The position numbers and the translations under genes were made by a program. A stretch of DNA of 49,221 bases from Candidatus Aerophobota bacterium (GTDB lineage: Bacteria; Aerophobota; Aerophobia; Aerophobales; JAGGXI01): NCBI GenBank assembly GCA_021163155.1, contig JAGGXI010000072.1:1-49221 (forward strand), read 5' to 3'. Positions 5,397 through 41,245 of the stretch are shown here, in pieces. The notes beneath the pieces are model-generated. The model was not told the DNA's origin and made no database searches. It saw only the letters and a list, made by a program, of their open reading frames with translations. How positions within the stretch are numbered: the first letter of the stretch is position 1; each line of letters starts with the position of its first letter.

Positions 5397-7709
5397 TTAG
5401 GGAATATCCTTCGGCAGCAAAGTATCCAAGACTTCAATGGATTTTTTTATCTTAGTTTGATAATAGGGAGTATCAATTACTGTTATTTCATTATTACAAA
5501 GTATAATATTCCCTTTATCTGATAAAAAACGGCGAACAATAGGAATGATATCCGAAGTTTCTACATGCTTTAACTTGTAGGTTCTTCTTTCTTTCCATCT
5601 GTTAAACTTATCTATAGCAAGAATTTTTTGTTTAATTCTCTTTAAAGGATAGGAAGCTTCCTGAAGTACAAATTCGTTTTTCTCTTCATCTTTACTCAAA
5701 ACCTTAGCCTCGAAAGATTTAAGTTCTCCTATTATCTCTATGATTTGGGAAAGAGGAGCATATTTTAAATGAATAATCTCCTCTCTCTTCTCTTTTTCAA
5801 AATTATCAAAACAAGTTAACTTCTCTTTAATTAAAGCCAAATGATAAGAAGAATCCTTCGCAAAAATAGAATTCTCTTCCTCATCAACTTTAACTTCTCC
5901 TTTATCAGACAAAAAAGGAATTATCTTTTTAGACAAAGGAGCAGCAAAACAGTATTTTGCTTGATAACTCATCTCCTCAGGTTGATATATATCAAATTTT
6001 TTAATATTTTTCTTTACTTCATCCAGATGCCATTTCAGAGCGATAACCACCAGAGCATTTCTGTCAGCATCTACCTTTATAGTAGCCTTATTACAAAGAA
6101 CAGAAGAGAGTGTCTTCTTAAACTCTTCTGATGAATAAAGTATATCAGCTTTTACATATTTTAAGAAAAATACTTCGCTCTTTTTTTGGGAGTTAAAATC
6201 ATCCAATTTTGCTATTTTCTCAGCTATTTTCTGAATCACCCAGTTATTATCTACCACCATTAACCTGTTCTTTTTTATATAAATATTTCCCCGAGGGGAG
6301 AGAATTTTTTTTAAAAGAGGGGTAATAAATTCACCTCTTTGAATATACTTTAAAGAAAAGCTCTTTCTTTGTAACTTTTGATTATGTTTTTCAAGAGAGG
6401 CTAAAGCTTCCTTTATTCTCATTAATTGATATGCTCCATCCTCTATTATTAAATTATACTTTTCCTTATTCATACGGATATTTCCTTTTGAAGAAAGCAA
6501 AGGAGAAAGAGCTTCTTTTGCTTCTTCAAGAGAAGAATATCTCAGGGGAAAGACTTTTTCTCTTCTTTGCTCTTTAAAAGTACCCATCCTGCTTAACATC
6601 TTCTGGATTACCTCTACTTTATCTTCAGAATCCCTTACTAAAATTGAATTAGAAGGAGCCTCTTTGGGATTTATCTCCATTGTTCCCTGAGAAGAAATAA
6701 TCCCTTTGATTTGATTAGCCATCTCTTCTGCAATAGCATATCTAAAGGAAAAAACTTTCTTACATCTTCCCTTTATCTCCCTCGGTTTAAGTATATGAGG
6801 AGTCACTGTTATAAGAAGGTTTTTTGTCGATGTTGCCGTCTTCTTACTCTTAAAAATATCACCTATAATAGGAAGGTCGGAAAGAATAGGAAGACCTTTT
6901 TCTGTCTTTTCTTTCTTCTTTATTACCAACCCTCCAATAATGATAGGCTCGTCACTCCTTACAGTGATGTTGGTAGGGGATACCTGACGAGAAAAAACAG
7001 GACGCTCTGTCCCAAATTCTTCAGTACTGTAATCACTCACTACAGGGATAATAGACATTTGAACATATTCTTTCCCTATAATTTTAGGAAGCACTTGAAG
7101 AACTATTCCTACGGTGACATAAGTATACTCTTTAGTCTCTTCACTTATTCCCGCTTCTGTTGTAGTAGTGACCTTGGAAAGATAAGAAACATCTTCAACA
7201 TTATAAATGCCGGCTACCTCTCCACTTATGGTGGTTACCCGAGGTTCTGAGAGAACTTTTGCTTCCCCTTTAGAGACAAGCATATTTAAAAGAGCCTGGA
7301 ATTCTTCCTCTCCGCTTACTAATCTATAGAAATTAAAACTGAAGCCACCTATACTTTTATTTCCTATTTCTGTAAGCGTCTTAGGGCCGTACTCCAAAAT
7401 AGTTCCCTCACCTTCAGTTCCTTTAGGAGTTTCGATGCCTGTTTTCCTCTCTATATATGCACCAAAATTCTGAGCGCCACTTTTTGTAAGCTCTAATACT
7501 CTTGCCTTAATTTGAATCTGTCTTGTCTCTAAAGGAAATTGAGGGATCATCTTCTCTATCTCTTTTAATTTCTCCCTGGGAGCTCTTACCGTAATTCTTC
7601 CCGTAGAAGTATCCACCATAATGGAGGGTTCTGCAAAAACTTTAAAATTAAAGAAAGAAAAAAAAATCATTATTAAGAAAAGTACCCCTACTATTTTAAT
7701 TTTTCTCAT
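5397..7709 (-). CDS. Secretin (PilQ/GspD family) with atypical domain order: signal peptide, half N-domain, secretin barrel, then ~7 C-terminal secretin N-domain repeats
   Basis: QIQIKARVLE, KVLSEPRVTT, VGIVLQVLPKI, IIIGGL, GLPILSDLPIIGDIFK and LLITVTPHIL fall in aa ~63-310. They are followed by ~62-68 aa repeats of the form FxLKY..LSxKG..N.L...D....I..I..LD. Confidence 0.88.
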   Translation of the reverse strand: MRKIKIVGVLFLIMIFFSFFNFKVFAEPSIMVDTSTGRITVRAPREKLKEIEKMIPQFPLETRQIQIKARVLELTKSGAQNFGAYIERKTGIETPKGTEGEGTILEYGPKTLTEIGNKSIGGFSFNFYRLVSGEEEFQALLNMLVSKGEAKVLSEPRVTTISGEVAGIYNVEDVSYLSKVTTTTEAGISEETKEYTYVTVGIVLQVLPKIIGKEYVQMSIIPVVSDYSTEEFGTERPVFSRQVSPTNITVRSDEPIIIGGLVIKKKEKTEKGLPILSDLPIIGDIFKSKKTATSTKNLLITVTPHILKPREIKGRCKKVFSFRYAIAEEMANQIKGIISSQGTMEINPKEAPSNSILVRDSEDKVEVIQKMLSRMGTFKEQRREKVFPLRYSSLEEAKEALSPLLSSKGNIRMNKEKYNLIIEDGAYQLMRIKEALASLEKHNQKLQRKSFSLKYIQRGEFITPLLKKILSPRGNIYIKKNRLMVVDNNWVIQKIAEKIAKLDDFNSQKKSEVFFLKYVKADILYSSEEFKKTLSSVLCNKATIKVDADRNALVVIALKWHLDEVKKNIKKFDIYQPEEMSYQAKYCFAAPLSKKIIPFLSDKGEVKVDEEENSIFAKDSSYHLALIKEKLTCFDNFEKEKREEIIHLKYAPLSQIIEIIGELKSFEAKVLSKDEEKNEFVLQEASYPLKRIKQKILAIDKFNRWKERRTYKLKHVETSDIIPIVRRFLSDKGNIILCNNEITVIDTPYYQTKIKKSIEVLDTLLPKDIP

Positions 7710-7770
7710 TTTTCTCCCTCTAATACTGTTTTTTCTCTTTTTTGTTTTTTCCCCTTTAATCCTCTAATCC

Positions 7771-9588
7771 TTACTTTCCGGGCCCTATTGTCCCTAAATT
7801 AATGTTTGGTGAAGGGACACTCATATTCATCCATTGACCTTTTTTCTCTGTTAATTCCATTCCTTTTATATTTTCAGGTTTCACTCCAATCATATTGGCT
7901 ATAGTAATAGCTATATTATCCAGGGAACCTTCTTCAATATAAAATGTTTTGGTGGTTATCTCTTCTCCCATAGAAGAGCTATTCAGTTTTGAAATTTCCT
8001 TATTTATTTTAGGAATATTCCTTTTTAAATCAGTTATATAAATTGTATTTCTGTTTTCATAAAGTCTATTATTCTTAGGGGAACTATTCTTTTCTTGAGA
8101 TTTAAATTTAACTTCTTCTTTGCTCTCATCTTGAGGAATGATAATATAATCTTCCTCAACATTTTTCTTTTTCTCTTCAACATCTTTAACTTGAGGTAAA
8201 GATATTTTCCCGTATTCGCTAATTACATTTCGAAGAAAATATTCAGCCTCCCTGGCAGTCAAATATTCCAAAGTGTATCCCTTTGTAGTTAACTGAGAGC
8301 TTAAAACATCTACCTTATTAATTAATTCATCAACCTTTTTTAAATACTTTTCTACATCTGAAACTACAATAGTATCTGTCTTTTCATCTATCTCCACCTT
8401 ACCTTTATCCGAGAGAAGCTCCTCTATTTCTCTTGCTGTTTGAGAGAGGGGAGCAAACTTTATTCTATAAGTTTTCCTCTGGGGTTTAAAAGAATCCATC
8501 TCTCCAACAATTTTCTTTATTTTCTCTAAATTATAAGAAAAATCCTTTACTATAAGAAAAGACCTCTCCTTATCCTCCTTTAATTCTCCATAAGAGGATA
8601 GTCTCTCTTTAATAGAGGAGGACACTCTCTTTATTTGGGCATACTTTATCTGAAAATCCTCTTCCTTCATTTGCATCTGGGGATTATCTATACTTAAGAT
8701 AAAATCCTTTATTCTCTTTAAGTTATAAGAGGAGTCTGTAACTATAAGCTCATTTTTATCTTTGTTCACACTTATCTTTCCTTTAGAGCTAAGATAAGAG
8801 GGGATAAGCCTGGAAACTTCATCTGCTAAAGCAAATTTAAGGGAGAAAATTTTTAAAGTTGCCTTAAATACATCCAGAGAGGGGATAAAAGAGGATATCT
8901 CCTTCATTTTACAAGCAACATCTCTTACAAGAAGAGAATTGGCTAAAGAATTAACCTCAATTCCCCCTGTTTCACTTAAATAACTCTTTAAAATAGAGGC
9001 AGCTTTTTCAGCCTCAATAAAATTTAAGGAAAAGTTTTTTTCTCGCATCTGCCTTGCAGGCTCATCTATCTTTAAGATAGCATCCTCTATATTTTTAAAA
9101 TTCTCCTTAATATCGGTAACTATTAAAATATTTGTCTCCTCATTCACCTTAAGAATTCCCTTAGGAGAGAGAAATGATTTAATAGAAGATGCCTGTTCAG
9201 TAGCCAAAGCATACTTTAAGGGGAAATCCTTTGTGAGAAGAGAAACTTTTGCCTTGACCACCTTTATAACATTGTTATCTACTATCTGGTAATCGCAATC
9301 ACTTCCCTTAAGAATGATTTGAAGAGCTTTTAATGCAGGAATGGGCCTGGGGAAACTCGCTGTTACTTTTCCTTCTACATCAGGACCTATAATCATATTT
9401 AAACCTGTTTTAAGAGATATAGCATGTAGAGCATCTCTTAAATTAATATCTGTAAAATTTAAAAAGATATCTTCACTCTGATAAGATATCTTACTGATAT
9501 TGGGGGAGGAACCAAAACAAGAAGAATCTAAAGTAATTATTCCTACCAGTAATCCTAAAAATATCCATACTTTTATTACCTTCATCAT
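7771..9588 (-). CDS. Secretin periplasmic part only: signal peptide, N0/STN-like domain, ~6 N-domain repeats and a terminal half repeat; no beta-barrel
   Basis: LNFTDINLRDALHAIS..GLNMII..DVEGKVT (N0-like), then repeated FxLKY/F..LSxKG..N.LIVTD units. It occupies the pilQ position after pilP. Confidence 0.82.
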   Translation of the reverse strand: MMKVIKVWIFLGLLVGIITLDSSCFGSSPNISKISYQSEDIFLNFTDINLRDALHAISLKTGLNMIIGPDVEGKVTASFPRPIPALKALQIILKGSDCDYQIVDNNVIKVVKAKVSLLTKDFPLKYALATEQASSIKSFLSPKGILKVNEETNILIVTDIKENFKNIEDAILKIDEPARQMREKNFSLNFIEAEKAASILKSYLSETGGIEVNSLANSLLVRDVACKMKEISSFIPSLDVFKATLKIFSLKFALADEVSRLIPSYLSSKGKISVNKDKNELIVTDSSYNLKRIKDFILSIDNPQMQMKEEDFQIKYAQIKRVSSSIKERLSSYGELKEDKERSFLIVKDFSYNLEKIKKIVGEMDSFKPQRKTYRIKFAPLSQTAREIEELLSDKGKVEIDEKTDTIVVSDVEKYLKKVDELINKVDVLSSQLTTKGYTLEYLTAREAEYFLRNVISEYGKISLPQVKDVEEKKKNVEEDYIIIPQDESKEEVKFKSQEKNSSPKNNRLYENRNTIYITDLKRNIPKINKEISKLNSSSMGEEITTKTFYIEEGSLDNIAITIANMIGVKPENIKGMELTEKKGQWMNMSVPSPNINLGTIGPGK

Positions 9589-10020
9589 CTATCTCCCTAT
9601 TTTTAATTTAATCACCCCATCTTTTCCTATTAAAATGACTTCTCCTGTATCCCTTTTAATCTCAGATATTACAAAATTCTTTATAATATCTCCTCTTTTC
9701 ACAATCCATATCTTCTTTTCCTCTTGAATAATGGCAAGTATTCCTTTCTCATCTCCCACCAAACCCACTAACTTATATTTTGAATTTAGTAATATTTTAG
9801 GAGAAACTGCTAACTTATTAGGTTTAGAAGATTTATAGACTCTCTTTTTGCTTAATAGAGATACGAAAGGGTCTCTTCTCTCTTCACTTTTATATTGAAA
9901 AAAGGACGAGGAAAAATTTGTCCCTTTATCTACCTCTTTTTCTTCTTTTGCCAGAGAAATATTAATATTAAAAGAAGAGATAAGGATTATCTCTAAAATC
10001 ACCAAAAAAATATATCTCAT
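9589..10020 (-). CDS. PilP-like pilus assembly protein
   Basis: Y....RRDPF motif and a C-terminal LVGLV..AII..IVKRGD.I beta domain; lies after pilO. Confidence 0.75.
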   Translation of the reverse strand: MRYIFLVILEIILISSFNINISLAKEEKEVDKGTNFSSSFFQYKSEERRDPFVSLLSKKRVYKSSKPNKLAVSPKILLNSKYKLVGLVGDEKGILAIIQEEKKIWIVKRGDIIKNFVISEIKRDTGEVILIGKDGVIKLKIGR

Positions 10021-10673
10021 TCCCTTTTCCTATTAACTGCTAAAGCAGGGCCTTCTTTCTTTCCTTCACTAACCTTAGGAGTAGGCTTAAAAGAGGATTC
10101 TTTGTAAGTATACATTAAAAGGACCATTTCTATATCTATGGTATTTTTTTTATTCAACTTTTTACTTTCTTCTGTTGTGGTCAATCCTTTTATCCTAATC
10201 TCTTCCACATTAAAAGGAACCATTGCTTTTTTTCTGTTTATATCTGAAAGAAGCATACCTAAAGCATGATAAGTAGAATAAAAATGCATTCTTACCGGAA
10301 GATAGTTATAATACTTTCCCTTGACTATCTGTTGAGGAACTATTTTTATATAATCAATGCCGTATATTTGTGCTTTAACCCCTATTTCTTGAAGGAAAAA
10401 GTATATCTGATCTTCCGTAGAAAGACTTTCTTCTAGAGAAGAGACTCTTGCTTTTGTCTCCTCATATTTACGTTCTATTTCACCATGTTTATAAACTTCT
10501 TTTTGGGCTCGATTAAGAATTAAATTATCCTCGCTTATCTGCCTTCTTATTTTTTTAAGGAGTTTAATCTGAGGAAGATAAAAACCCCAATAAAAAGTGC
10601 AAATTATAGCTAAGCACACTCCTAATCCTATTACTATTCTACCTTTTGGCGTTAAAAAAGATAGTTTACTCAC
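10017..10673 (-). CDS. pilO: Type IV pilus assembly protein PilO
   Basis: N-terminal TM, coiled coil, YNYLPVRM..STYHALG pattern; pilMNOP synteny. Confidence 0.85.
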   Translation of the reverse strand: MSKLSFLTPKGRIVIGLGVCLAIICTFYWGFYLPQIKLLKKIRRQISEDNLILNRAQKEVYKHGEIERKYEETKARVSSLEESLSTEDQIYFFLQEIGVKAQIYGIDYIKIVPQQIVKGKYYNYLPVRMHFYSTYHALGMLLSDINRKKAMVPFNVEEIRIKGLTTTEESKKLNKKNTIDIEMVLLMYTYKESSFKPTPKVSEGKKEGPALAVNRKRE

Positions 10674-11239
10674 TGCTCTTCCTCTCCAAAAAGTTTCAAA
10701 CTACAATTTAGCTTAAATTCCATCACTCCTGTTCCATCTATCACTCTTCTGGATATCTCGGAAAGATTTATTCGGTTAAAAAGAGAAGAATTATTTAAAT
10801 TCTCCATAAACTTAGCTATATCCACAGTCTGGTTGAAACTATATCCCCGAATATTAACCATTCTCTCTTTATTCTTAGGGATTTGTGTAAGTTCAGCTAA
10901 CCAGATATTATCTGGTAAGGACTTACTTATTACATAAAGAATTTGAGGCCAGGAAGGTCGATTGGCCACTAATTTCCTAAGATTATTAAGATGGGAGGTG
11001 ATTTCGGCTTCCTTAGCTTTCAATTCTTTTAATTCCACTAATAAAGGCTGGTATTTTTTAATTTCACTTTTAATTAAATTTGATTGTCTTACAGCTATTT
11101 TAACCTCTTCTTTAACGGAGAAAAAAAGGGAAAGACAAATTAAAACAATGGTTACAGCGGATATGGAAATAAAAATAGCGAAAGCCTTTATTCCTTTACG
11201 TTTAAGCGCTTGTTCAGGTAATAGATTTATCTCTATCAT
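10670..11239 (-). CDS. pilN: Type IV pilus assembly protein PilN
   Basis: N-terminal INLLP motif, TM, coiled coil, LPDNIWL. Confidence 0.92.
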   Translation of the reverse strand: MIEINLLPEQALKRKGIKAFAIFISISAVTIVLICLSLFFSVKEEVKIAVRQSNLIKSEIKKYQPLLVELKELKAKEAEITSHLNNLRKLVANRPSWPQILYVISKSLPDNIWLAELTQIPKNKERMVNIRGYSFNQTVDIAKFMENLNNSSLFNRINLSEISRRVIDGTGVMEFKLNCSLKLFGEEEQ

Positions 11240-12294
11240 ACCTCTGCCACCTTTCTAAAAGCTAAACCTAACACTGGAGTAAACATCGGCTCTACTTCAG
11301 CTAAATAATTAGGCTGGAATTTTCGAGAATCGTAGATAATTTTCTTAAAAGGATGGTATTTCTCTACAGGTATTCCCAACTCTTCGGATAAAAATCCCTC
11401 TATATTCTTAAGACAGGAGGTACCTCCGCTAAGAATTAATTTATTTATAATTTCTCCTCTTTTTTGAGAAGTATAATATTCAAAAGAATGAATAACCTCT
11501 TTTATTAAATTATCCATAGATTTCCTGATCACTTTATCTACCAATCTTCTTTCTTTTTCCTCTTCTTTCTCTATATCCTGAAAAGCAAGAAGTCCATATC
11601 TTTTCTTTATTTCCTCTGCTTCTTTGTAATCAACTTTTAATTGTTTTGCAATAGAGTGTGTAATCTGGAAACCTCCTATATTTATGTCCCTTACTACAAA
11701 GGGACTGCCTTTAAATAACAAGACAATACTGGTTGTGTAATGCCCAATATCAAGAAGAGCTATATTGCTTAATTCTTCTTCATTAAACAATTGAAAAACA
11801 TTAAATAGAGCAAGAGCCTTAACATCTATAATCTGAGGAGAAATACCTGCTTTTTGGAGAAGATTAAGATGTGCATCAATCAGCTCCTTCTTTACGCCTA
11901 CCAGCATTACAGACATTTTTCCCCCCGCCAAGTCCTTATCAAGAATGTGGAATCCTAATGAGATATCATTGGATGGATAAGGGATATACTCTTCTACTTG
12001 CCATTTAATAGATTGTGCAAATTCTTTCTCTGTCATTCGAGGCATTTCCACTATGCGAACAATCACTTTATCTCCCCCTATTCCAGAAACAATTCGTTTT
12101 GGATTAATTTTATATTTGCTAACAATCTTTTTGATGGCTTCTATAGTAAGAGATTCTGACTGAGAATTATCTTCTATAGGGTTTATTTCTACCATACCCA
12201 ACTTTCTTAATTCATAACCTCTCTTTCTATGAATTAATTCTACTGCTTTTACTATTCTTCCTCCTATTTCCAAACCCACACTTACCTTAGCCAT
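11236..12294 (-). CDS. pilM: Type IV pilus assembly protein PilM (actin-like)
   Basis: VGLEIG, YIPY, LLDIGH, GGFQIT and LSGG motifs; directly upstream of pilN. Confidence 0.93.
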   Translation of the reverse strand: MAKVSVGLEIGGRIVKAVELIHRKRGYELRKLGMVEINPIEDNSQSESLTIEAIKKIVSKYKINPKRIVSGIGGDKVIVRIVEMPRMTEKEFAQSIKWQVEEYIPYPSNDISLGFHILDKDLAGGKMSVMLVGVKKELIDAHLNLLQKAGISPQIIDVKALALFNVFQLFNEEELSNIALLDIGHYTTSIVLLFKGSPFVVRDINIGGFQITHSIAKQLKVDYKEAEEIKKRYGLLAFQDIEKEEEKERRLVDKVIRKSMDNLIKEVIHSFEYYTSQKRGEIINKLILSGGTSCLKNIEGFLSEELGIPVEKYHPFKKIIYDSRKFQPNYLAEVEPMFTPVLGLAFRKVAEV

Positions 12295-14275: not shown

Positions 14276-15340
14276 TTATTCTCTCAATTTTTCTCTAATA
14301 ATTTTTGCTCTTAATTCATTTCGAGAAAAAGAACTCAGCTCTTTCCCTTCTTTAATCTGAATCTGAGCAGGAGCAATTAAAAAAAGAAGCTCATTTAAAA
14401 CGCGAATGTTTTTCACTTTGGGTAATAAATTCAAACTAAATCCTAACCTCACTTTTGAAAGCAAATCCATAGCTTCTTCAAAACTTATCAAATAAGCATT
14501 CGCAAGAAGACCATAAGCTCTTCCTATATTATCTTTAAGTTCTGTTTTATTTTTTCTAAATAAGATCTCCCTCGCTTTCTTCTCTTCTTCTACTGCTTGT
14601 CGGCTTATTTTTCCCACATTATCTACAATCTCTTCTTCCTTTATACCTAAAGTAACTTGATTTGATATTTGGAAAAAATCACCCTGAGGTGTAGTTCCTT
14701 CACCATATAAACCTCTGGCTACCAATCCTAATTGAGATATCCCTCTTAATACTCCATTAATTCTTTGAGTAGCTACCAGCCCAGGAAGATGCAGCATACA
14801 GGAAGCTCTCATACCTGTACCTGTGTTGGTAGGACAAGCAGTAAGGTAACCCCACTTAGGAGAAAAAGCATAATCCAAATTTCTTTCTAATTCATCATCT
14901 ACTGCATTAATTAACTGCCAGGCCTCTTGCAATTGAAGTCCAGAAAAAATACTTTGCAAACGGAAATGGTCTTCCTCATTTATCATTAAAGAAATTATTT
15001 CTCTTTTTTCCACTACTAAGAATCTATAATCTTCACTCTTAATAAATTCTAAACTAATTAAATGTTTTTCCAAGAAAAATTCTCTTTCCACAGGAGAAAG
15101 CTCGCTTATATTGATTACTCGTGCATTTCTAAAATAGTTACTTTTTCTTACCGAATTTAAAATCTTCTCTGCTGTCTGTTTTAATACAAAAGGTTGAGCA
15201 TAAGGAGGAAAAACAAAACCTTTTAGATTACGAGCTAATCTTATTCGACAACTAAAAACAACATCTGCCTCTGGTCCATTCCCCATCAACCATCCACTGG
15301 TAGAATTAGCTATCTCTTGAAGAGTCGTTTTATTTTTCAT
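14276..15340 (-). CDS. mcsB: Protein arginine kinase McsB
   Basis: RIRLARN, MINEEDH, GYLTACPTNTGTGMRAS and QISNQVTLG motifs; adjacent to mcsA. Confidence 0.95.
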   Translation of the reverse strand: MKNKTTLQEIANSTSGWLMGNGPEADVVFSCRIRLARNLKGFVFPPYAQPFVLKQTAEKILNSVRKSNYFRNARVINISELSPVEREFFLEKHLISLEFIKSEDYRFLVVEKREIISLMINEEDHFRLQSIFSGLQLQEAWQLINAVDDELERNLDYAFSPKWGYLTACPTNTGTGMRASCMLHLPGLVATQRINGVLRGISQLGLVARGLYGEGTTPQGDFFQISNQVTLGIKEEEIVDNVGKISRQAVEEEKKAREILFRKNKTELKDNIGRAYGLLANAYLISFEEAMDLLSKVRLGFSLNLLPKVKNIRVLNELLFLIAPAQIQIKEGKELSSFSRNELRAKIIREKLRE

Positions 15341-15833
15341 CTTTTTCTAACCTATGGATTTCATCTCTAATTTCAGCTGCCCTTTCGTATTCTTCCTTTT
15401 TTATCACTTCTTTTAGCTCCTTACGTAATTCATAAATTTGTTTGCTTAACCCATTCTTAACCTTTCCCTTTTGTGGAATCTTACCAGAATGATAAGTTTT
15501 GCCTTGAATTCTTTCCAAAAGAGGAGTTAAGTATTTCTCAAAGACTTGATAGCAAGAACTACAACCTATCTTTCCTCTTTTTTTAATATCTTCATAACTT
15601 AGCCCACAAATGGGGCATCTTACTGTTTCGACTTCTTCTGCAGGAAAAGGAATCTCTATATCTGTTAAACTAGCTATTAAATTGGACAGAGGGAAACCCG
15701 GCATAAAAAAAGGCTTATCCCATCCCTTTTCTTTGGCACATACTTCACATAGATGAAGTTCCCTTACCTCTCCATTGATTACTTCTTTAAAATGAAACGT
15801 AGCTTCTCTTTTGCCACATATCTGACAAAGCAT
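15330..15833 (-). CDS. mcsA: McsA (CxxC zinc fingers plus UVR domain), activator of McsB
   Basis: MLCQIC, LCEVCA, CPICG, GCSSCY and EEYERAAEIRDEI. Start trimmed to the ATG at 15833. Confidence 0.93.
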   Translation of the reverse strand: MLCQICGKREATFHFKEVINGEVRELHLCEVCAKEKGWDKPFFMPGFPLSNLIASLTDIEIPFPAEEVETVRCPICGLSYEDIKKRGKIGCSSCYQVFEKYLTPLLERIQGKTYHSGKIPQKGKVKNGLSKQIYELRKELKEVIKKEEYERAAEIRDEIHRLEKDEK

Positions 15834-15849
15834 TTTTATACCTTTCTTA

Positions 15850-15877
15850 ATTTTATAATTAACCAAAGTTATGTCAA
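15850..15877 (-). promoter_or_regulatory. Putative sigma70-type promoter for mcsA
   Basis: Minus strand TTGACA-N16-TAAAAT. Confidence 0.65.
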
Positions 15878-34474: not shown

Positions 34475-37400
34475 TTAGTTTTCGTGTAAATCTGTATTTA
34501 AAAATCCTGTTCCTGCAGGAATTAGTTTACCAATAATCACATTCTCCTTTAATCCTTTTAATTGATCTATCTGCCCCCAAACAGCTGCCTCTACTAAAAC
34601 TTGTTTTGCTCTCTGAAAAGAAGCAGCGGATAAGAAACTCCTATTATCTTCTTGCACTGCTTTGGGTATTGATAAAAGAACAGGTTTTACTTTAGCTGGC
34701 TTACCGCCATTCTTTTTTATTTCCCTGTTAATCTCCTCAAACTCTACTTTATCTATCTGTTCTCCTGGCAGGTAATCTGTATCTCCTGGATCTTCTATTT
34801 CTACCCTTCTCATCATTTGCCTTATAATTACTTCAAAATGTTTGAGATTTATATCTACCCCCTGAGATAGATAAACTTCCTGAGTCTGGTTAACTAAATA
34901 CTCTTCTACCGCCCTAACTCCTTTTATATTTAAAAGAACCCGCGGATTTGTACTCCCCTCAATAATCTTTCTCCCCGCCTCTACTTTCTCTCCATCGGAG
35001 ACGAGTAGCTCTCCTCCTGCTTCGTAAACTATTTCTTCCCCTTTTTCTCCTTGTATCCTAACAAATGAACGTCCTTCTTTATTTTCTATTTTTACTATGC
35101 CTTCCCTTTCGCTTATAAGTGCCTCTTCTCCTTCCCTTTGTCTAATAGACTTTTCTTGGGAATAGTTATGCCTTCGAGGTTCAAACAACTCTGTTACTCG
35201 AGGTAAACCTTGGGGGATATCTCCCCCTTTTCGAAATATCCCTCCTGTATGGAAAGTACGTAAAGTGAGCTGAGTTCCTGGTTCTCCTATAGACTGAGCA
35301 GCTATAACCCCTACAGCTTCTCCTACATTAACTAATTTATGAGTAGATAAATCCCAGCCATAACACCTTTGACACAATCCCCATTTAGCCTGACAAGTCA
35401 AAGGAGAACGAACTTTCACCTTTTTTATCCCTACTTTCTCTATTCTTTCTGCCATCTCCTCTGTTATCTCTTTGTTGGAACCTATTATTACCTCTTTTGT
35501 AGAAGGATCTATTACTGGGGAAACGGTTACCCTACCCACTATTCTACTACTTAAAGATTTTATTAATTTCCCTTCTTCAATTAAAGGACTTATATATAAA
35601 CCATCTATAGTTCCGCAATCCTCTTCTGAAATAATAATATTTTGAGCTACAGCTACTAACTTACGGGTAAGATATCCTGCATAAGCTGTCTTGAGAGCAG
35701 TATCTACTAATCCTTTTCTACCTCCCGATGTGGAGAGAAAATACTCTGAAGTAGTAAGGCCATCTTTAAAACTCGACTTGATAGGTTCTTCAACAATCCT
35801 TCCTCTTAACCTTCCTCCCGAGAGAGGATAAAAATATTGTCTAATTAAAGCAGGAGAAATATTAAGTTGTCTTTTAAATGCTTCATCCCAAAGCTCATGT
35901 CGATAAGTCTCTCTTATGGATCTCCCCATTAAACCCTTCATTCCAACTATTTGACGTAATTGATCCTTACTTCCCCTTGCTCCAGATTTCCACATCAAAT
36001 AAAGAGGATTAAAAATATCCTTTGAAAGATATTGAGATACCTTTTCCCCTATTTGCTCAGTAGCTCTTACTCTTAGATCTATCACATCCATATATCTCTC
36101 TTCTTCGCTAATTTCCCCATCCTCTGCCCTTCTATTATATCCCTCCACTTCTTCCTCTATCGCTTGCAAAAATTTCTTCTTCTTTGGCATATTAGGGATA
36201 TCGCTAATAGAGAAAGTCAAACCTGACTTAGTAGCATATTCAAATCCTATTTTTTTTATTTTATCTAAAACTTTAATGGTAGTCATATTTCCATACTTTT
36301 TCCAAATTTCACTTACTATTTCTGTAAGAGCTTTTTTATCTACTAAACAATTCTTAAATTCCATCCCTTGGGGTAGAACTTGATTTAAAATTACCCTTCC
36401 TGGGGTAGTAGATATCCAACCTTTCCCTTGACGTAGTTTTATTTTCTGATGAAGAGCTAATTTCCCCAGCTCATAAACAAAAATCACTTCCTCTCTACTT
36501 GAAAAAACTCTCTCTTCCTCACCTGTATCCTTTTCTAAAGTTAAATAATAACAACCAACCGTTATATCTTGAGTAGGGGAGATTATAGGCTCTCCGTGAG
36601 AAGGAGAAATTATATTATTGATGGAAAACATCAAAGTTTTTGTCTCAAGTTGTGCTTCAAATGAGAGAGGGATATGTATAGCCATTTGATCTCCATCAAA
36701 ATCGGCATTAAAAGCTGTACACACTAAAGGATGAAGTTGAATAGCATTTCCTTCTATTAAAATAGGCTGGAAAGCTTGCATTCCTAAACGATGGAGGGTA
36801 GGAGCTCTGTTAAGGATTACAGGATGATCTTTAACTACTCTTTCTAATATTTCCCAAATGAAAGGCTCTGTTTTTTCTATAAAGTCATTAGCTCTCTTTA
36901 TAGTTTCTGCTTTACCTTCAAGTAAGATTTCTGCCAGGACAAAAGGCCTGAAAAGTTCTAGAGCCATTTTTTCGGGAACTCCGCATTGATGTAATTTTAA
37001 ATCCGGGCCCGGTATAATCACAGCCCTACCAGAATAATCAACTCTCTTACCCAATAGATTTTGCCTGAATCTACCTTGCTTTCCTTTCATTATCTCGCTT
37101 AAAGATTTAAGAGGTCTATGAGCAGCGCCTAATATAGGTTGAGGGATCTTTTCGTTTTCAATAAGAGCATCTACTGATTGCTGAAGCATCTTTTTTTCAT
37201 TTTGAATAATTATCTGAGGAGCTCCTATATCTAGCAAATATCTAAGGCGATTATTTCGATTAATAATACGTCGATATAAATCATTTAAATCTGAATTAGC
37301 AAAAACCCCGTTTTCTAACTGGACCATAGGTCGAAAGTCAGGAGGTATAACAGGAATAATCTTTAAAATTACCCACTCCGGCTTATTGCCTGAATAAACA

Positions 37401-40400
37401 AATTTCTTCATTACCCCTAACTGCTTAATTAACTTAATTCTTTTAGTTTTATTTCCTTCTTCAAGGAGTTTTTCTTTCAATCTTTTCATTGATTCTTCTA
37501 AGTCCATATTCTCTAAAATTTCTAAAATTGCTTCTGCTCCCATACCTGCACGGAAAGCATCTTCTCCATAAATCTGTTTATATCTTTGATACTCCTCTTC
37601 ACTTAAAATTTGTAATTTCTTTAAAGGAGTTTTACCGGGGTCAATTATTAAATAGTTCATAAAATAGATTACCTTTTCTACCTCACTTCTTTTAAGATTA
37701 AGTAAAGACGGCAAATATTTCTTTACATACCAGATATGAGTAACAGGAGTAGACAACTCGATATGCCCCATTCTTTCTCGGCGAACTTTGGATGAGGTAA
37801 CCTCAACCCCACATCTCTCACATACTACACCCTTATATTTCATCTTTCTATATTTACCACAATAGCATTCATAGCTTTTTGTAGGCCCAAAGATTTGTTC
37901 ACAAAAAAGTCCTCCTCTCTCTGGCCTAAAAGTCCGATAATTAATAGTATCTGTCTTTCTCACCTCTCCATGAGACCACTTCCTTATCTCTTCAGAAGAA
38001 GCTAATCTTATCTTTATTTTATCTATATTATCCATCTTCCATGGTTCTTCCCCTTTTTCCATATCCTCGATAGAAAATTTTTTAGTGCCTTCCCAAAACT
38101 CCAAATTCAATCCCAGGGCTTGAAGCTCTTTAACTAAAACCTTGAAAGATTCAGGAGTTTGAGTACTTAATGTATTTTCCCTTTTTACTATCTCTTCATG
38201 GATTTTGGTTCTTCCCTGAATATCATCAGATTTATTGGTAAGCATTTCCTGAAGAGTATAGGCTGCTCCATATCCTTCCAAAGCCCATACTTCCATTTCC
38301 CCGAATCTCTGTCCTCCTTGCCTTGACCTCCCCCCTAATGGCTGCTGAGTAATCAAAGCATAAGGTCCGGTAGAACGAGCATGTATTTTCTCCTCAGCTA
38401 AGTGGATGAGTTTCATTATATACATATAACCTACGGCAACTGGCTGATGAAAAGGCTCTCCTGTCCGCCCATCATAAAGAATAGTCTTCCCTGACTCGGA
38501 AAGATGAGCCTTATTTAATAGCTCCCTTATCTTATCCTCCAGGGGGCCCTCAAAAACAGGGCATATCATATATGCACCTAAAGTTTTCGCTATCCATCCT
38601 AAGTGCATCTCTAATATCTGACCTATATTCATTCTCGAAGGAACCCCTAAAGGATTTAAGACTATCTCTATAGGCGTTCCATCAGGAAGATAAGGCATAT
38701 CTTCCTCAGGAAGCACCCTGGAGACGACTCCCTTATTTCCATGACGGCCAGCCATCTTATCCCCGACCCCAATTTTGCGCCTAACGGCTATATATACCTT
38801 TACTCTCTTTCTTACATTAGGAGGAAGATTATCTTTGTTAGATTGAGAAAGAACTTTAATTTTAATTACCTTTCCTTTAACACCTGGAGGAATCCTTAAA
38901 GAATTATCCTTAACTTTTTGCGCTTTTTCTCCAAAGATGCTACGCAACAGTCTCTCTTCAGGAGTAAGCTTTATCTCAACTTGGGGAGTCACCTTACCTA
39001 CTATAATATCTCCTGGCTTTACCTCTGCTCCTATTCTAATGATACCCTCTCCATCTAAATTTTTTAAAACTGTTTCTTCCACATTAGGAACATCGGCGGT
39101 TATCTCCTCTATTCCTGATTTAAGTTCTTTTGCCTCAACTTGAAATTCCTCAATATGAATAGAGGTAAAAGTATCTTCCTTTACTAATTTTTCGCTAACT
39201 AAGATTGCATCTTCAAAATTGTATCCTTCCCAGGGCATAAAAGCTACGAGAATATTTCTTCCTAAAGAGAGTTTACCATTATTCATAGCTGGGCCATCAG
39301 CTATGAATGCCCCCTCTTTTATTCTGTCCCCTTTAGATACTAAAACTCTTTGATTTATACAAGTTTTTTGATTGGACTTTCTAAATTTTACTAAATTATA
39401 TGTATCTATGCCTTCAGAACTCCTTACACTTACTTTATCAGCATCTACATAGACGACTTCTCCCCCTTTCTTCGCTACTGTTCCAACCATAGAATCTTTA
39501 GCTACTTTTCCTTCTACTCCTGTTTGAACAAAAGGCTCTTCTGGAATTTCTAAGGGGACTGCCTGACGTTGCATATTCGATCCCATCAAAGCTCGGTTAG
39601 CTTCATCGCTCTCTAAAAAAGGAATCAATGAAGTACTAATACTTACCATTTGTTTAGGAGATACATCTATATAATCTATCTCTTCTTTAGCAACCTTTAC
39701 AATCTCTCCCTTATGCCTGGCTATAACTTGCAGGTCTATAAAATTTCCTTCTTCATCAACAGCACCAGCACCAGCAATATGGTACTTATCCTCTTCTCTT
39801 GCATCCAAATATACTATTTCTTTAGTAGCTCTTCCCTTCTTCACTTTTCTATAAGGAGCCTCCAAAAAACCTAATTCATTTATCCTGGCATAACTAGCTA
39901 AAGAAGCAATTAAACCAATGTTTTGCCCTTCAGGGGTTTCTATGGGGCAAATACGTCCATAATGGGTATAATGAACATCTCTCACTTCTTCTTTAGCCTG
40001 AACGCGTGTTAATCCTCCAAGACCAAGAGCCGACAGTCTACGTTTATGAGTTAGCTCAGCTAAAGGGTTAGTTTGATCTAAATATTGAGAAAGAGAGCCT
40101 GTATTAAAAAAACCATTTATTGCACTTCTCATTACATTGGTATTAATAAGAGAACGAGGAGAAACTTTATCCGGCTCCTGAATACTCATTCCTTGTTGAA
40201 CTATTCTTGCCAAATGGACCAAACCAATATGAAACTGGTTAGCTAAAAGTTCACCTATCCCTCTTACCCTTCTGCAAGAAAGATGATCTATGCTTTTAAT
40301 CTCTTCTTTTTCTCTATTTAATTTGAATAGATGTTTTATAGTTTCTACCACATCTTTTAATTGAAGAATTCCTACATCCCAATTATTATTTAAATCTAAC

Positions 40401-41245
40401 TCCTTATTTATTTGATATCTTCCTGTTTTACTTAGATTATACCTATGAGGATCACGGAAATTCTTATCAAAGATTTCTTTTGGTGATTCAAAGATAGCTG
40501 AATGCCCGGGCCGAAGTCTCTGATAAATCTTAAGAAGAGCCTCTTTTTGCGATTTTACTCCGTCTTGCTCAAAACTTTCTTTTAACATCTTTCTATCTCT
40601 AAAATCAGTAAATTCATTGATAATTTGTTCAGGAACTCCCCCCATAGCCCTTATAAATAAGGTAGTCAAAAATTTCCTTCCTCTATTAATACGTGTATAC
40701 AAAAAATCTTTTTTAATTTCAAAATCTAACCAGTTTCCTCTTTCAGGTATAATTCGCGCTTTATAAAGCACTCCTTTCCCTGTCGTAGCTGTAGGATCCT
40801 CCTCAAAAAAGAGACCTGGTGAGCGTTGAAGCTGACTTACTATTACTCTTTCCGCCCCATTAATAATAAAGCTTCCCTTTTCAGTCATCAATGGAAGATT
40901 GCCTAAATAAATCTCTTGTTCAGTTACCTCCCCCGTTTCTGTCCTCTTTAAACGAAGTTTAACATATAAAAAAAGAGAATATGTAAGTTCTTCTTCCCTG
41001 CATTTTTCTATACTATATTGAGGTTTACTAAGTTGATATTCTACAAAATCTAAACGTAATTTTCTATTATAACTCTCTATAGGAAAAACATCTTTAAATA
41101 TCGCTTGTAATCCCTCATTCTTCCTCTTATTTGGAGGAACATCCTCTTGTAGAAAGTTTTTAAAAGAGATTTTCTGCATCTGTAGAAGATCGGAAGTATC
41201 TATTACAGATTTAGATTTAGTAAAATCTATTATTTTCTCTTTCAT
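34475..41245 (-). CDS. rpoBC: Fused RNA polymerase beta-beta' (RpoB ~aa 1-1070, RpoC ~aa 1071-2256)
   Basis: Beta motifs GDKMAGRHGNKG, GGQRFGEME and PESFKVL, then in frame the beta' motifs IRLASS, 4-Cys zinc ribbon, NADFDGD, GEPGTQL and GLKENVIIG. No stop at the junction near 38035. Confidence 0.93.
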   Translation of the reverse strand: MKEKIIDFTKSKSVIDTSDLLQMQKISFKNFLQEDVPPNKRKNEGLQAIFKDVFPIESYNRKLRLDFVEYQLSKPQYSIEKCREEELTYSLFLYVKLRLKRTETGEVTEQEIYLGNLPLMTEKGSFIINGAERVIVSQLQRSPGLFFEEDPTATTGKGVLYKARIIPERGNWLDFEIKKDFLYTRINRGRKFLTTLFIRAMGGVPEQIINEFTDFRDRKMLKESFEQDGVKSQKEALLKIYQRLRPGHSAIFESPKEIFDKNFRDPHRYNLSKTGRYQINKELDLNNNWDVGILQLKDVVETIKHLFKLNREKEEIKSIDHLSCRRVRGIGELLANQFHIGLVHLARIVQQGMSIQEPDKVSPRSLINTNVMRSAINGFFNTGSLSQYLDQTNPLAELTHKRRLSALGLGGLTRVQAKEEVRDVHYTHYGRICPIETPEGQNIGLIASLASYARINELGFLEAPYRKVKKGRATKEIVYLDAREEDKYHIAGAGAVDEEGNFIDLQVIARHKGEIVKVAKEEIDYIDVSPKQMVSISTSLIPFLESDEANRALMGSNMQRQAVPLEIPEEPFVQTGVEGKVAKDSMVGTVAKKGGEVVYVDADKVSVRSSEGIDTYNLVKFRKSNQKTCINQRVLVSKGDRIKEGAFIADGPAMNNGKLSLGRNILVAFMPWEGYNFEDAILVSEKLVKEDTFTSIHIEEFQVEAKELKSGIEEITADVPNVEETVLKNLDGEGIIRIGAEVKPGDIIVGKVTPQVEIKLTPEERLLRSIFGEKAQKVKDNSLRIPPGVKGKVIKIKVLSQSNKDNLPPNVRKRVKVYIAVRRKIGVGDKMAGRHGNKGVVSRVLPEEDMPYLPDGTPIEIVLNPLGVPSRMNIGQILEMHLGWIAKTLGAYMICPVFEGPLEDKIRELLNKAHLSESGKTILYDGRTGEPFHQPVAVGYMYIMKLIHLAEEKIHARSTGPYALITQQPLGGRSRQGGQRFGEMEVWALEGYGAAYTLQEMLTNKSDDIQGRTKIHEEIVKRENTLSTQTPESFKVLVKELQALGLNLEFWEGTKKFSIEDMEKGEEPWKMDNIDKIKIRLASSEEIRKWSHGEVRKTDTINYRTFRPERGGLFCEQIFGPTKSYECYCGKYRKMKYKGVVCERCGVEVTSSKVRRERMGHIELSTPVTHIWYVKKYLPSLLNLKRSEVEKVIYFMNYLIIDPGKTPLKKLQILSEEEYQRYKQIYGEDAFRAGMGAEAILEILENMDLEESMKRLKEKLLEEGNKTKRIKLIKQLGVMKKFVYSGNKPEWVILKIIPVIPPDFRPMVQLENGVFANSDLNDLYRRIINRNNRLRYLLDIGAPQIIIQNEKKMLQQSVDALIENEKIPQPILGAAHRPLKSLSEIMKGKQGRFRQNLLGKRVDYSGRAVIIPGPDLKLHQCGVPEKMALELFRPFVLAEILLEGKAETIKRANDFIEKTEPFIWEILERVVKDHPVILNRAPTLHRLGMQAFQPILIEGNAIQLHPLVCTAFNADFDGDQMAIHIPLSFEAQLETKTLMFSINNIISPSHGEPIISPTQDITVGCYYLTLEKDTGEEERVFSSREEVIFVYELGKLALHQKIKLRQGKGWISTTPGRVILNQVLPQGMEFKNCLVDKKALTEIVSEIWKKYGNMTTIKVLDKIKKIGFEYATKSGLTFSISDIPNMPKKKKFLQAIEEEVEGYNRRAEDGEISEEERYMDVIDLRVRATEQIGEKVSQYLSKDIFNPLYLMWKSGARGSKDQLRQIVGMKGLMGRSIRETYRHELWDEAFKRQLNISPALIRQYFYPLSGGRLRGRIVEEPIKSSFKDGLTTSEYFLSTSGGRKGLVDTALKTAYAGYLTRKLVAVAQNIIISEEDCGTIDGLYISPLIEEGKLIKSLSSRIVGRVTVSPVIDPSTKEVIIGSNKEITEEMAERIEKVGIKKVKVRSPLTCQAKWGLCQRCYGWDLSTHKLVNVGEAVGVIAAQSIGEPGTQLTLRTFHTGGIFRKGGDIPQGLPRVTELFEPRRHNYSQEKSIRQREGEEALISEREGIVKIENKEGRSFVRIQGEKGEEIVYEAGGELLVSDGEKVEAGRKIIEGSTNPRVLLNIKGVRAVEEYLVNQTQEVYLSQGVDINLKHFEVIIRQMMRRVEIEDPGDTDYLPGEQIDKVEFEEINREIKKNGGKPAKVKPVLLSIPKAVQEDNRSFLSAASFQRAKQVLVEAAVWGQIDQLKGLKENVIIGKLIPAGTGFLNTDLHEN

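Follow-up and report, generated by a model that had tools for sequence, protein, structure and literature searches.

How is the gate of a type IV pilus built when its pore subunit carries N-domains behind the barrel? Type IV pili, type II and type III secretion and filamentous phages all use secretins as their gate in the outer membrane, and in all solved secretins, to our knowledge, the ring-building N-domains precede the barrel. The question is raised by a locus in a 49,221-nucleotide stretch of DNA (contig JAGGXI010000072.1 of assembly GCA_021163155.1, positions 1 to 49,221; hereafter the window) from Candidatus Aerophobetes, an uncultured phylum of hydrothermal vents and sediments. Here the pore-subunit gene (P0001) and a partner gene directly upstream (P0002) together represent, on the evidence of their sequences, a type IV pilus secretin that is cut inside its last N-domain into two polypeptides, with seven further N-domains following the barrel. 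The order along P0001 is signal peptide, half N-domain, secretin barrel, basic linker and seven N-domains; the first parts are:

5397..7709, minus strand: pore-subunit gene (P0001), 770 residues, no internal stop
7714..7720, minus strand: Shine-Dalgarno-like GAGGGAG, 4 nucleotides 5' of the ATG at 7709, marking a translation start of its own
7632..7709, minus strand: putative Sec-type signal peptide, residues 1-26, recognized by eye from a hydrophobic core followed by VFA/EP
7530..7631, minus strand: half N-domain, residues 27-60, beta2-beta3-alpha2 of the last N-domain, 67% mean pairwise family identity
6786..7529, minus strand: secretin barrel domain, residues 61-308, matching Pfam Secretin (144-308) and solved secretins
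6756..6785, minus strand: basic linker KPREIxGRxK, residues 309-318, 5 of 10 columns invariant, 77% mean pairwise identity over 19 full-length relatives

The Pfam Secretin profile matches residues 144-308 at 123.4 bits (cut-off 27.5), placing P0001 in superfamily PF00263, and the barrel matches 23 solved secretins in the PDB (best expectation value (E) 2.5e-18). A first reading of the letters and open reading frames (hereafter the original prediction) had ended the secretin core at LLITVTPHIL, near residue 306, and this motif indeed lies at residues 298-307. Mature residues 27-60, ahead of the barrel, fit only positions 34-63 of the 69 in Pfam Secretin_N and align with beta2-beta3-alpha2 of the N3 domain of GspD (6i1x, 198-227), so that P0001 begins partway through the last N-domain; this half domain is all that the chain holds of PF03958 N-domains in front of its barrel. 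Scores remain below the NCBIfam cut-offs for both PilQ (TIGR02515; P0001 169.2 bits, partner 152.8 bits, cut-off 284.35) and GspD (TIGR02517; P0001 236.3 bits, cut-off 351.35), and N-domains occupy the post-barrel region in which GspD-type proteins carry a C-terminal S-domain. The best-conserved stretch of the whole protein is the linker KPREIxGRxK, which leads from the barrel into the following array:

6555..6755, minus strand: C-terminal N-domain 1, Secretin_N E 7.4e-7, 65% family identity
6363..6554, minus strand: C-terminal N-domain 2, Secretin_N E 1.1e-4, present in all complete family members seen
6174..6362, minus strand: C-terminal N-domain 3, Secretin_N E 0.063, 79.5 bits with the repeats' own hidden Markov model (HMM)
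5970..6173, minus strand: C-terminal N-domain 4, Secretin_N E 5.3e-3, 6-residue insertion in the helix 1 region
5778..5969, minus strand: C-terminal N-domain 5, own-repeat HMM 87.5 bits, without a Pfam match alone, profile nearest to partner domain 3
5583..5777, minus strand: C-terminal N-domain 6, own-repeat HMM 76.7 bits, without a Pfam match alone
5400..5582, minus strand: C-terminal N-domain 7, Secretin_N E 1.2e-3

Seven repeats had been anticipated from their opening motifs (VFSFRY, VFPLRY, SFSLKY, VFFLKY, SYQAKY, IIHLKY and TYKLKH); these start at residues 319, 386, 450, 513, 581, 645 and 710 and delimit units of 67, 64, 63, 68, 64, 65 and 61 residues. A Pfam scan of the entire protein gave the same domain order, Secretin_N scoring 104.3 bits (cut-off 28.2) with its top stretch at residues 318-374, after the Secretin core. 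The placement of N-domains C-terminal to the barrel therefore stands for the seven units and has to be amended for the half N-domain, which precedes it. Scanned singly, five of the seven units match Secretin_N (E 7e-7 to 0.063); units 5 and 6 gave no Pfam match in such scans and are tied in through the repeat profile only. An HMM built from the seven units alone recovers all of them at 76-88 bits and also recovers the five full N-domains of the partner (31-58 bits). Against the PDB, 12 of the 13 matches of the seven-unit profile at E <= 0.1 are solved secretin N-domains, led by PilQ of V. cholerae (6w6m, 258-316; E 4.3e-6) and HofQ (2y3m; E 1.3e-5). Both the single-unit Pfam matches and these profile matches thus point to the repeats being secretin N-domains, as had been proposed. 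The C-terminal region submitted as a single sequence matched only a helicase in the PDB, which we judged spurious. Pairwise identity among the seven units is 11-29%, and between 5300 and 9700 no DNA repeat exceeds 32 nucleotides at 72% identity; by their sequences, the units are old and diverged long ago.

Repeat-coding DNA can be mis-assembled, and the original prediction had named this as a way in which it could fall. The layout might in principle stem from mis-assembled repeats, a chimeric contig or a decaying gene: the adjoining partner gene bears signs of a collapsed tandem repeat (see below), and three weak joints that skip sequence lie inside 5807-6846 (shorter side 22-27 letters, one contig each), although these may be strain variants with fewer repeats. 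Such an artefact is nevertheless extremely improbable. The seven units share no DNA repeat beyond the length just given, and single-run contigs bridge the barrel to domains 1-2 together with the gene boundary (6410-8015, one difference), the barrel to domain 3 (6196-7278) and domains 2-6 (5716-6619), with the qualification that the bridging runs may include the source sample. The layout also recurs in 24 genomes and, in other assemblies, on 19 named contigs; the ratio of nonsynonymous to synonymous substitution rates (dN/dS) of 0.25 across the repeats, measured against a sister genome, counts against a decaying gene. The feared mis-assembly was thus not borne out, given the bridging contigs, the independent assemblies and the lack of long DNA repeats.

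The front part of the secretin is encoded immediately upstream:

7771..9588, minus strand: partner gene (P0002), 605 residues as assembled, with N0, five N-domains, an N-domain split by an insertion and a conserved C-terminal mini-domain
7774..7989, minus strand: conserved C-terminal 72 residues of the partner, beta-alpha, two predicted strands and a DLGxIG tail
8289..9443, minus strand: probable collapsed tandem unit (N0 + N1-N5) of the partner gene, seen as a back-joint in contigs

Pfam recognizes N0 at residues 43-110 of the partner and Secretin_N at 136.7 bits, and finds no Secretin barrel in it. In contigs from three runs, position 9443 is connected back to 8289 across 27 intervening letters, which gives an in-frame period of 1182 nucleotides or 394 codons, at 1.5-3 times the depth of the flanks; in the sister genome, the partner (L032) has at least 1118 residues and comprises three 1185-nucleotide units of 97-98% identity, each with N0 and five N-domains. 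The partner is probably collapsed in the present assembly and in truth longer than 605 residues. The 605-residue partner protein of the original prediction accordingly holds as a barrel-less N0/N-domain protein and constant companion of the pore subunit, and fails in its length. Among relatives the number of N-domains in the partner ranges between 5 and at least 12 and is not coupled to the barrel protein; it varies through repetition of the whole unit of N0 and five N-domains, up to three times and with unit-to-unit identities from 34% to 98%. Internal, repeated N0 domains in one protein are themselves unusual. A distant barrel-less protein of similar kind (P0127, 707 residues) has N0 and eight N-domains; its C-terminal beta-alpha piece is conserved, and a low-complexity tail rich in glycine, arginine and phenylalanine then replaces the usual ending.

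The C-terminal domains of P0001 are homologous to the partner's N-domains (E 3.6e-32 across five domains, collinear, 30% identity). The idea that they arose from the partner array by in-register block duplication was dropped as unsupported: neither single-sequence scores nor per-position profiles showed a preferential match of domain i to partner domain i, so the collinear match reflects repeat similarity only.

The two genes lie 61 nucleotides apart in different frames. The barrel gene encodes a separate signal peptide, immediately followed by the conserved motif SIxVDxSTGRITV, in 16 of 16 related loci, and across related loci the frame offset between the genes varies between 0, 1 and 2; together with the barrel gene's own GAGGGAG, this indicates two separately exported proteins rather than one frameshifted gene. 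Among proteins of 1349-3850 residues no fused form of partner and barrel was found, which is weak evidence. As far as can be read from the genes, barrel and N-terminal domains thus reside on separately exported chains, an arrangement conserved in the lineage.

The genes directly upstream identify the system:

11236-12294, minus strand: pilM, Pfam PilM_2 1.5e-44
10670-11239, minus strand: pilN, Pfam PilN 1.4e-12
10017-10673, minus strand: pilO, Pfam PilO 5.4e-10
9589-10020, minus strand: weak pilP-like gene, Pfam PilP 3.6e-3, below cut-off

This pilM-pilN-pilO-pilP-like order leads straight into the partner/barrel pair, and pilB, pilC, a pilT-like ATPase and BamA are encoded elsewhere in the genome (with two T2SSE matches and a T2SSF match); the context is that of a PilQ, the pilP match being weak. 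P0001 is the sole Secretin match in its genome (1.83 Mb, 93% complete), and in 13 of the phylum's 31 genomes, including four that are 91-94% complete, proteins of its type are likewise the only such match. Being the sole Secretin match and accompanied by pil genes, P0001 and its partner must, on this gene content, be the working type IV pilus secretin of Candidatus Aerophobetes. No SLH-domain protein, as in a wide, Thermus-like envelope, was found in the 93%-complete genome, a result that says little. Several other genomes of the phylum have second secretins of conventional layout (N0-N-N-barrel), for example at L051 1034-3208 (minus strand), L053 1007-3196 (minus strand) and L054 711-3047 (plus strand). 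These carry a tail of about 225 residues with a weak TPR match (E 1.7e-4), possibly a fused pilotin-like part, and are preceded by a small open reading frame of about 260 residues with N0 and an N-domain. In the genome of the window itself, contig C34 carries, next after pilB and pilC, a gene (L058 9547-11856, plus strand) for a 769-residue protein of the Wzy_C (O-antigen ligase-like) type that has TPR repeats and is a candidate enzyme of pilin glycosylation.

Strong matches to the pore subunit (E <= 1.5e-74) occur in 24 of the 31 genomes, in addition to the locus on the 19 named contigs from other assemblies. Wherever enough sequence is available, the barrel is followed by 2, 3, 5, 6 or 7 N-domains and the barrel-less partner lies directly upstream. 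Eight public records that bear the locus (L036, L037, L038, L041, L043, L046, L049 and L050) are titled Clostridia, probably a mislabel. In the tree of barrel domains, the family forms one clade with 100/100 support and a long stem. Mean pairwise identity within the family falls from the linker (77%), half N-domain (67%) and domain 1 (65%) through domain 2 (59%), the barrel (58%) and domain 3 (55%) to domains 4-7 (48-51%). In comparison with the 78%-identical sister genome, the core has a dN/dS of 0.14, the linker with domains 1-3 one of 0.16 and domains 4-7 one of 0.32; by these ratios, the pore-subunit gene is under purifying selection. No complete member has fewer than two C-terminal domains, all matches under 423 residues being contig-end partials or broken. 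One three-domain genome retains a leftover of domain 7 at the stop (62% identical to a relative's domain 7), and this remnant shows that the change in that genome was a deletion.

This pattern bears on whether the array builds rings at all. It could instead be a flexible periplasmic arm that replaces an S-domain, a pilotin or TsaP—a separate LysM protein that forms a peripheral ring of PilQ—in targeting, assembly or tying the secretin to the envelope, with only domains 1 and 2 mattering. The array does occupy the position of an S-domain or pilotin, at least two domains are always retained while distal ones are lost repeatedly, and selection on domains 4-7 is laxer than on the core. An arm of this kind is nonetheless improbable: across the phylum's families all seven domains keep their order and an identity of 48-65%, beyond what a spacer needs; Pfam finds no peptidoglycan-binding or lipoprotein signature in P0001; and N-domains are described as oligomerizing ring modules (PMC5745081).

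The partner's C-terminus offers a clue to how the chains might meet. Its last 70 or so residues have a mean column identity of 65% over 17 relatives, above that of any partner repeat, and their profile finds 22 places in 21 of the 31 genomes, all 22 of them with a barrel gene following immediately on the same contig. The first 19 columns resemble beta1-alpha1 of an N-domain in the expected register, weakly (hhalign E 0.052, probability 1%), and the start lines up by eye with its counterpart in the closest conventional secretin, from Candidatus Ratteibacteria; the last 30 or so residues have no counterpart in N-domains. Searches with this segment returned nothing informative from the PDB, no Pfam family and no match to that conventional secretin (P0131; probability 0.15%). 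Its subtype tracks phylogeny, not the number of C-terminal domains or the identity of the last repeat, which disfavors docking at the end of the array; conservation of the half N-domain, linker, domain 1 and partner C-terminus suggests instead that the chains dock at the barrel base.

The arrangement that we favor, and whose chances we put near even, is a two-polypeptide secretin in which the partner's conduit is latched to the truncated N-domain and the C-terminal domains form a collar or second wall. The geometry, rings, collar and docking in it are all conjectural, as is the outer sleeve around the partner's tube that the original prediction had suggested. The partner would form the usual pilus conduit down to PilP and PilMNO, and its C-terminal mini-domain would dock on the truncated N-domain at the barrel base, rejoining both chains. 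The extra N-domains would emerge at the periplasmic outer side of the barrel, the site of S-domains and pilotins in other secretins, and make up an accessory collar or a second wall next to the upper end of the partner tube; the linker and domains 1 and 2 would be the indispensable junction, and domains 3-7 an expendable extension. In solved secretins the C-terminus lies at the barrel's outer surface, which is also the binding site of pilotins, and that of f1 pIV lies by the outer hydrophobic girdle to which pilotins attach (PMC8563730). By analogy, this indirectly favors an outer position for the C-terminal domains; with a linker of only ten residues and a C-terminus emerging there, domain 1 would have to sit on the outer face.

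Several observations weigh against this arrangement, in addition to the skipping joints described above. By our own reasoning, the same small domains at a larger radius and in equal subunit number cannot close a ring through their usual side contacts. The resemblance of the partner C-terminus to an N-domain is weak, with its probability of 1% and with nothing from the PDB or the conventional secretin, and the ESM Atlas model of this segment resembles small self-contained beta-alpha-beta-beta folds (TM-score 0.41-0.53); the segment may thus fold alone and not complement the half domain, which we take as a lead only. Moreover, the barrel-domain tree pairs seven-domain with three-domain forms as sisters on three or more occasions (L010, cut by a contig end, is not counted in this comparison), and because domain number shifts between sister genomes, whatever role domains 3-7 have is dispensable. 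The partner's N-domain count shifts as well, independently of the secretin.

The boldest reading would be a double-walled, two-protein secretin, in which the partner rings make the inner conduit, latched via the shared domain, and the C-terminal N-domains make a second, concentric or interdigitated wall around its top. We consider this possible but unlikely; if true, the double wall would be a new use of ring-building motifs, with a wall length tuned by the gain and loss of domains. The alternative to any outer structure is a single-walled conduit in series, amounting to a circular permutation of the N-domains-then-barrel order, in which the C-terminal N-domains fold under the barrel as the upper rings of the channel and the partner rings follow below. 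These domains are, after all, ordinary ring-building N-domains homologous to those of the partner, and the six stacked rings of Thermus PilQ (PMC5745081) set a precedent for one long channel. Such a channel is doubtful, however, since the linker between the last barrel strand and domain 1, only about ten residues long, begins at the barrel's outer face, the conserved partner C-terminus is unchanged whether the last repeat is domain 2, 3 or 7, the truncated N-domain at the barrel base would lack a counterpart, and no in-register match between C-terminal and partner domains backs an origin by duplication and permutation.

The collar arrangement and the cut within a domain can be set beside known systems. 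Thermus thermophilus PilQ comprises N0-N5 followed by the secretin domain (PMC5745081). The Aerophobetes pair shares with PilQ the barrel family, N0, N-domains of the beta-alpha-beta-beta-alpha type and the operon position of pilMNOP-Q, and one partner unit (N0 and five N-domains) equals the periplasmic domain count described for the Thermus protein; it differs from PilQ in consisting of two chains cut inside the last N-domain, in having 2-7 N-domains after the barrel and in repeating the N0-plus-five unit of the partner up to three times. Secretin function from two genes is also found in the rhizobial type III secretion system, where RhcC1 is an N-domain-only linker protein and RhcC2 a separate barrel protein (PMC3459982). 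In that paper's account, RhcC2 derives its barrel from a Tad locus, has a BON domain, may be encoded apart from RhcC1 and is given no N-domains after the barrel, whereas the Aerophobetes halves are adjacent and resemble one gene cut within a domain. In the mitochondrial type II secretion system, a GspD barrel is accompanied by separate GspDN1-3, two of which correspond to half N-domains; that system is eukaryotic, with single domains rather than arrays, and PMC8134430 reports no post-barrel N-domains. An S-domain with its pilotin is likewise an accessory element at the outer periplasmic face of the barrel that starts at the C-terminus (PMC8563730), as is proposed here for the array. The peripheral TsaP ring of PilQ is comparable in its position around the barrel. 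The S-domains of GspD, PulD and InvG are short helical segments and TsaP is a protein of its own, whereas the Aerophobetes element is an N-domain array in the same chain.

The expectation that this architecture is uncommon was upheld: among the best 150 of 29,122 representative matches, 139 proteins bear the secretin core, and the six with N-domains behind it all belong to this family, in a survey whose HMM was biased towards the family and in which 34 conventional matches with tails longer than 90 residues were left unclassified. Our literature searches found no account of N-domains placed after the barrel of a secretin, nor any of pili in Aerophobetes, and in the literature searched the phrase 'split secretin' was confined to two papers on type III secretion of the rhizobial type. 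As far as these searches reach, split secretins have precedents and N-domains after the barrel have none. Giant conventional secretins of 1400-4800 residues (P0133, P0143, P0162, P0165, P0175, P0191, P0239 and P0271-P0276, among others) were also encountered; in these the barrel lies at the very C-terminal end, preceded by many matched stretches, and one is named as Phycisphaerales.

A phylum with post-barrel N-domains and a cut inside a domain would show that module order is not fixed by assembly, and the pair offers a natural setting in which to ask how rings of N-domains nucleate and whether such rings can arise outside the channel. Both chains gain and lose domains fast (2-7 in the pore subunit, 5 to at least 12 in the partner), which is relevant to what sets the length of a conduit across the periplasm, and partner and barrel proteins make a compact pair for co-expression and cryo-electron microscopy.

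Two other loci in the window deserve mention. At 34475-41245 (minus strand), an open reading frame of 2256 residues contains all Rpb2 (beta) and then all Rpb1 (beta') domains, an rpoB-rpoC fusion that is shorter than the usual sum of both genes. At 14276-15866 (minus strand) lies an ATP:guanido phosphotransferase gene preceded by a small open reading frame with a UVR motif, which we take to be a protein arginine kinase pair of the McsB/McsA type, notable in a diderm.

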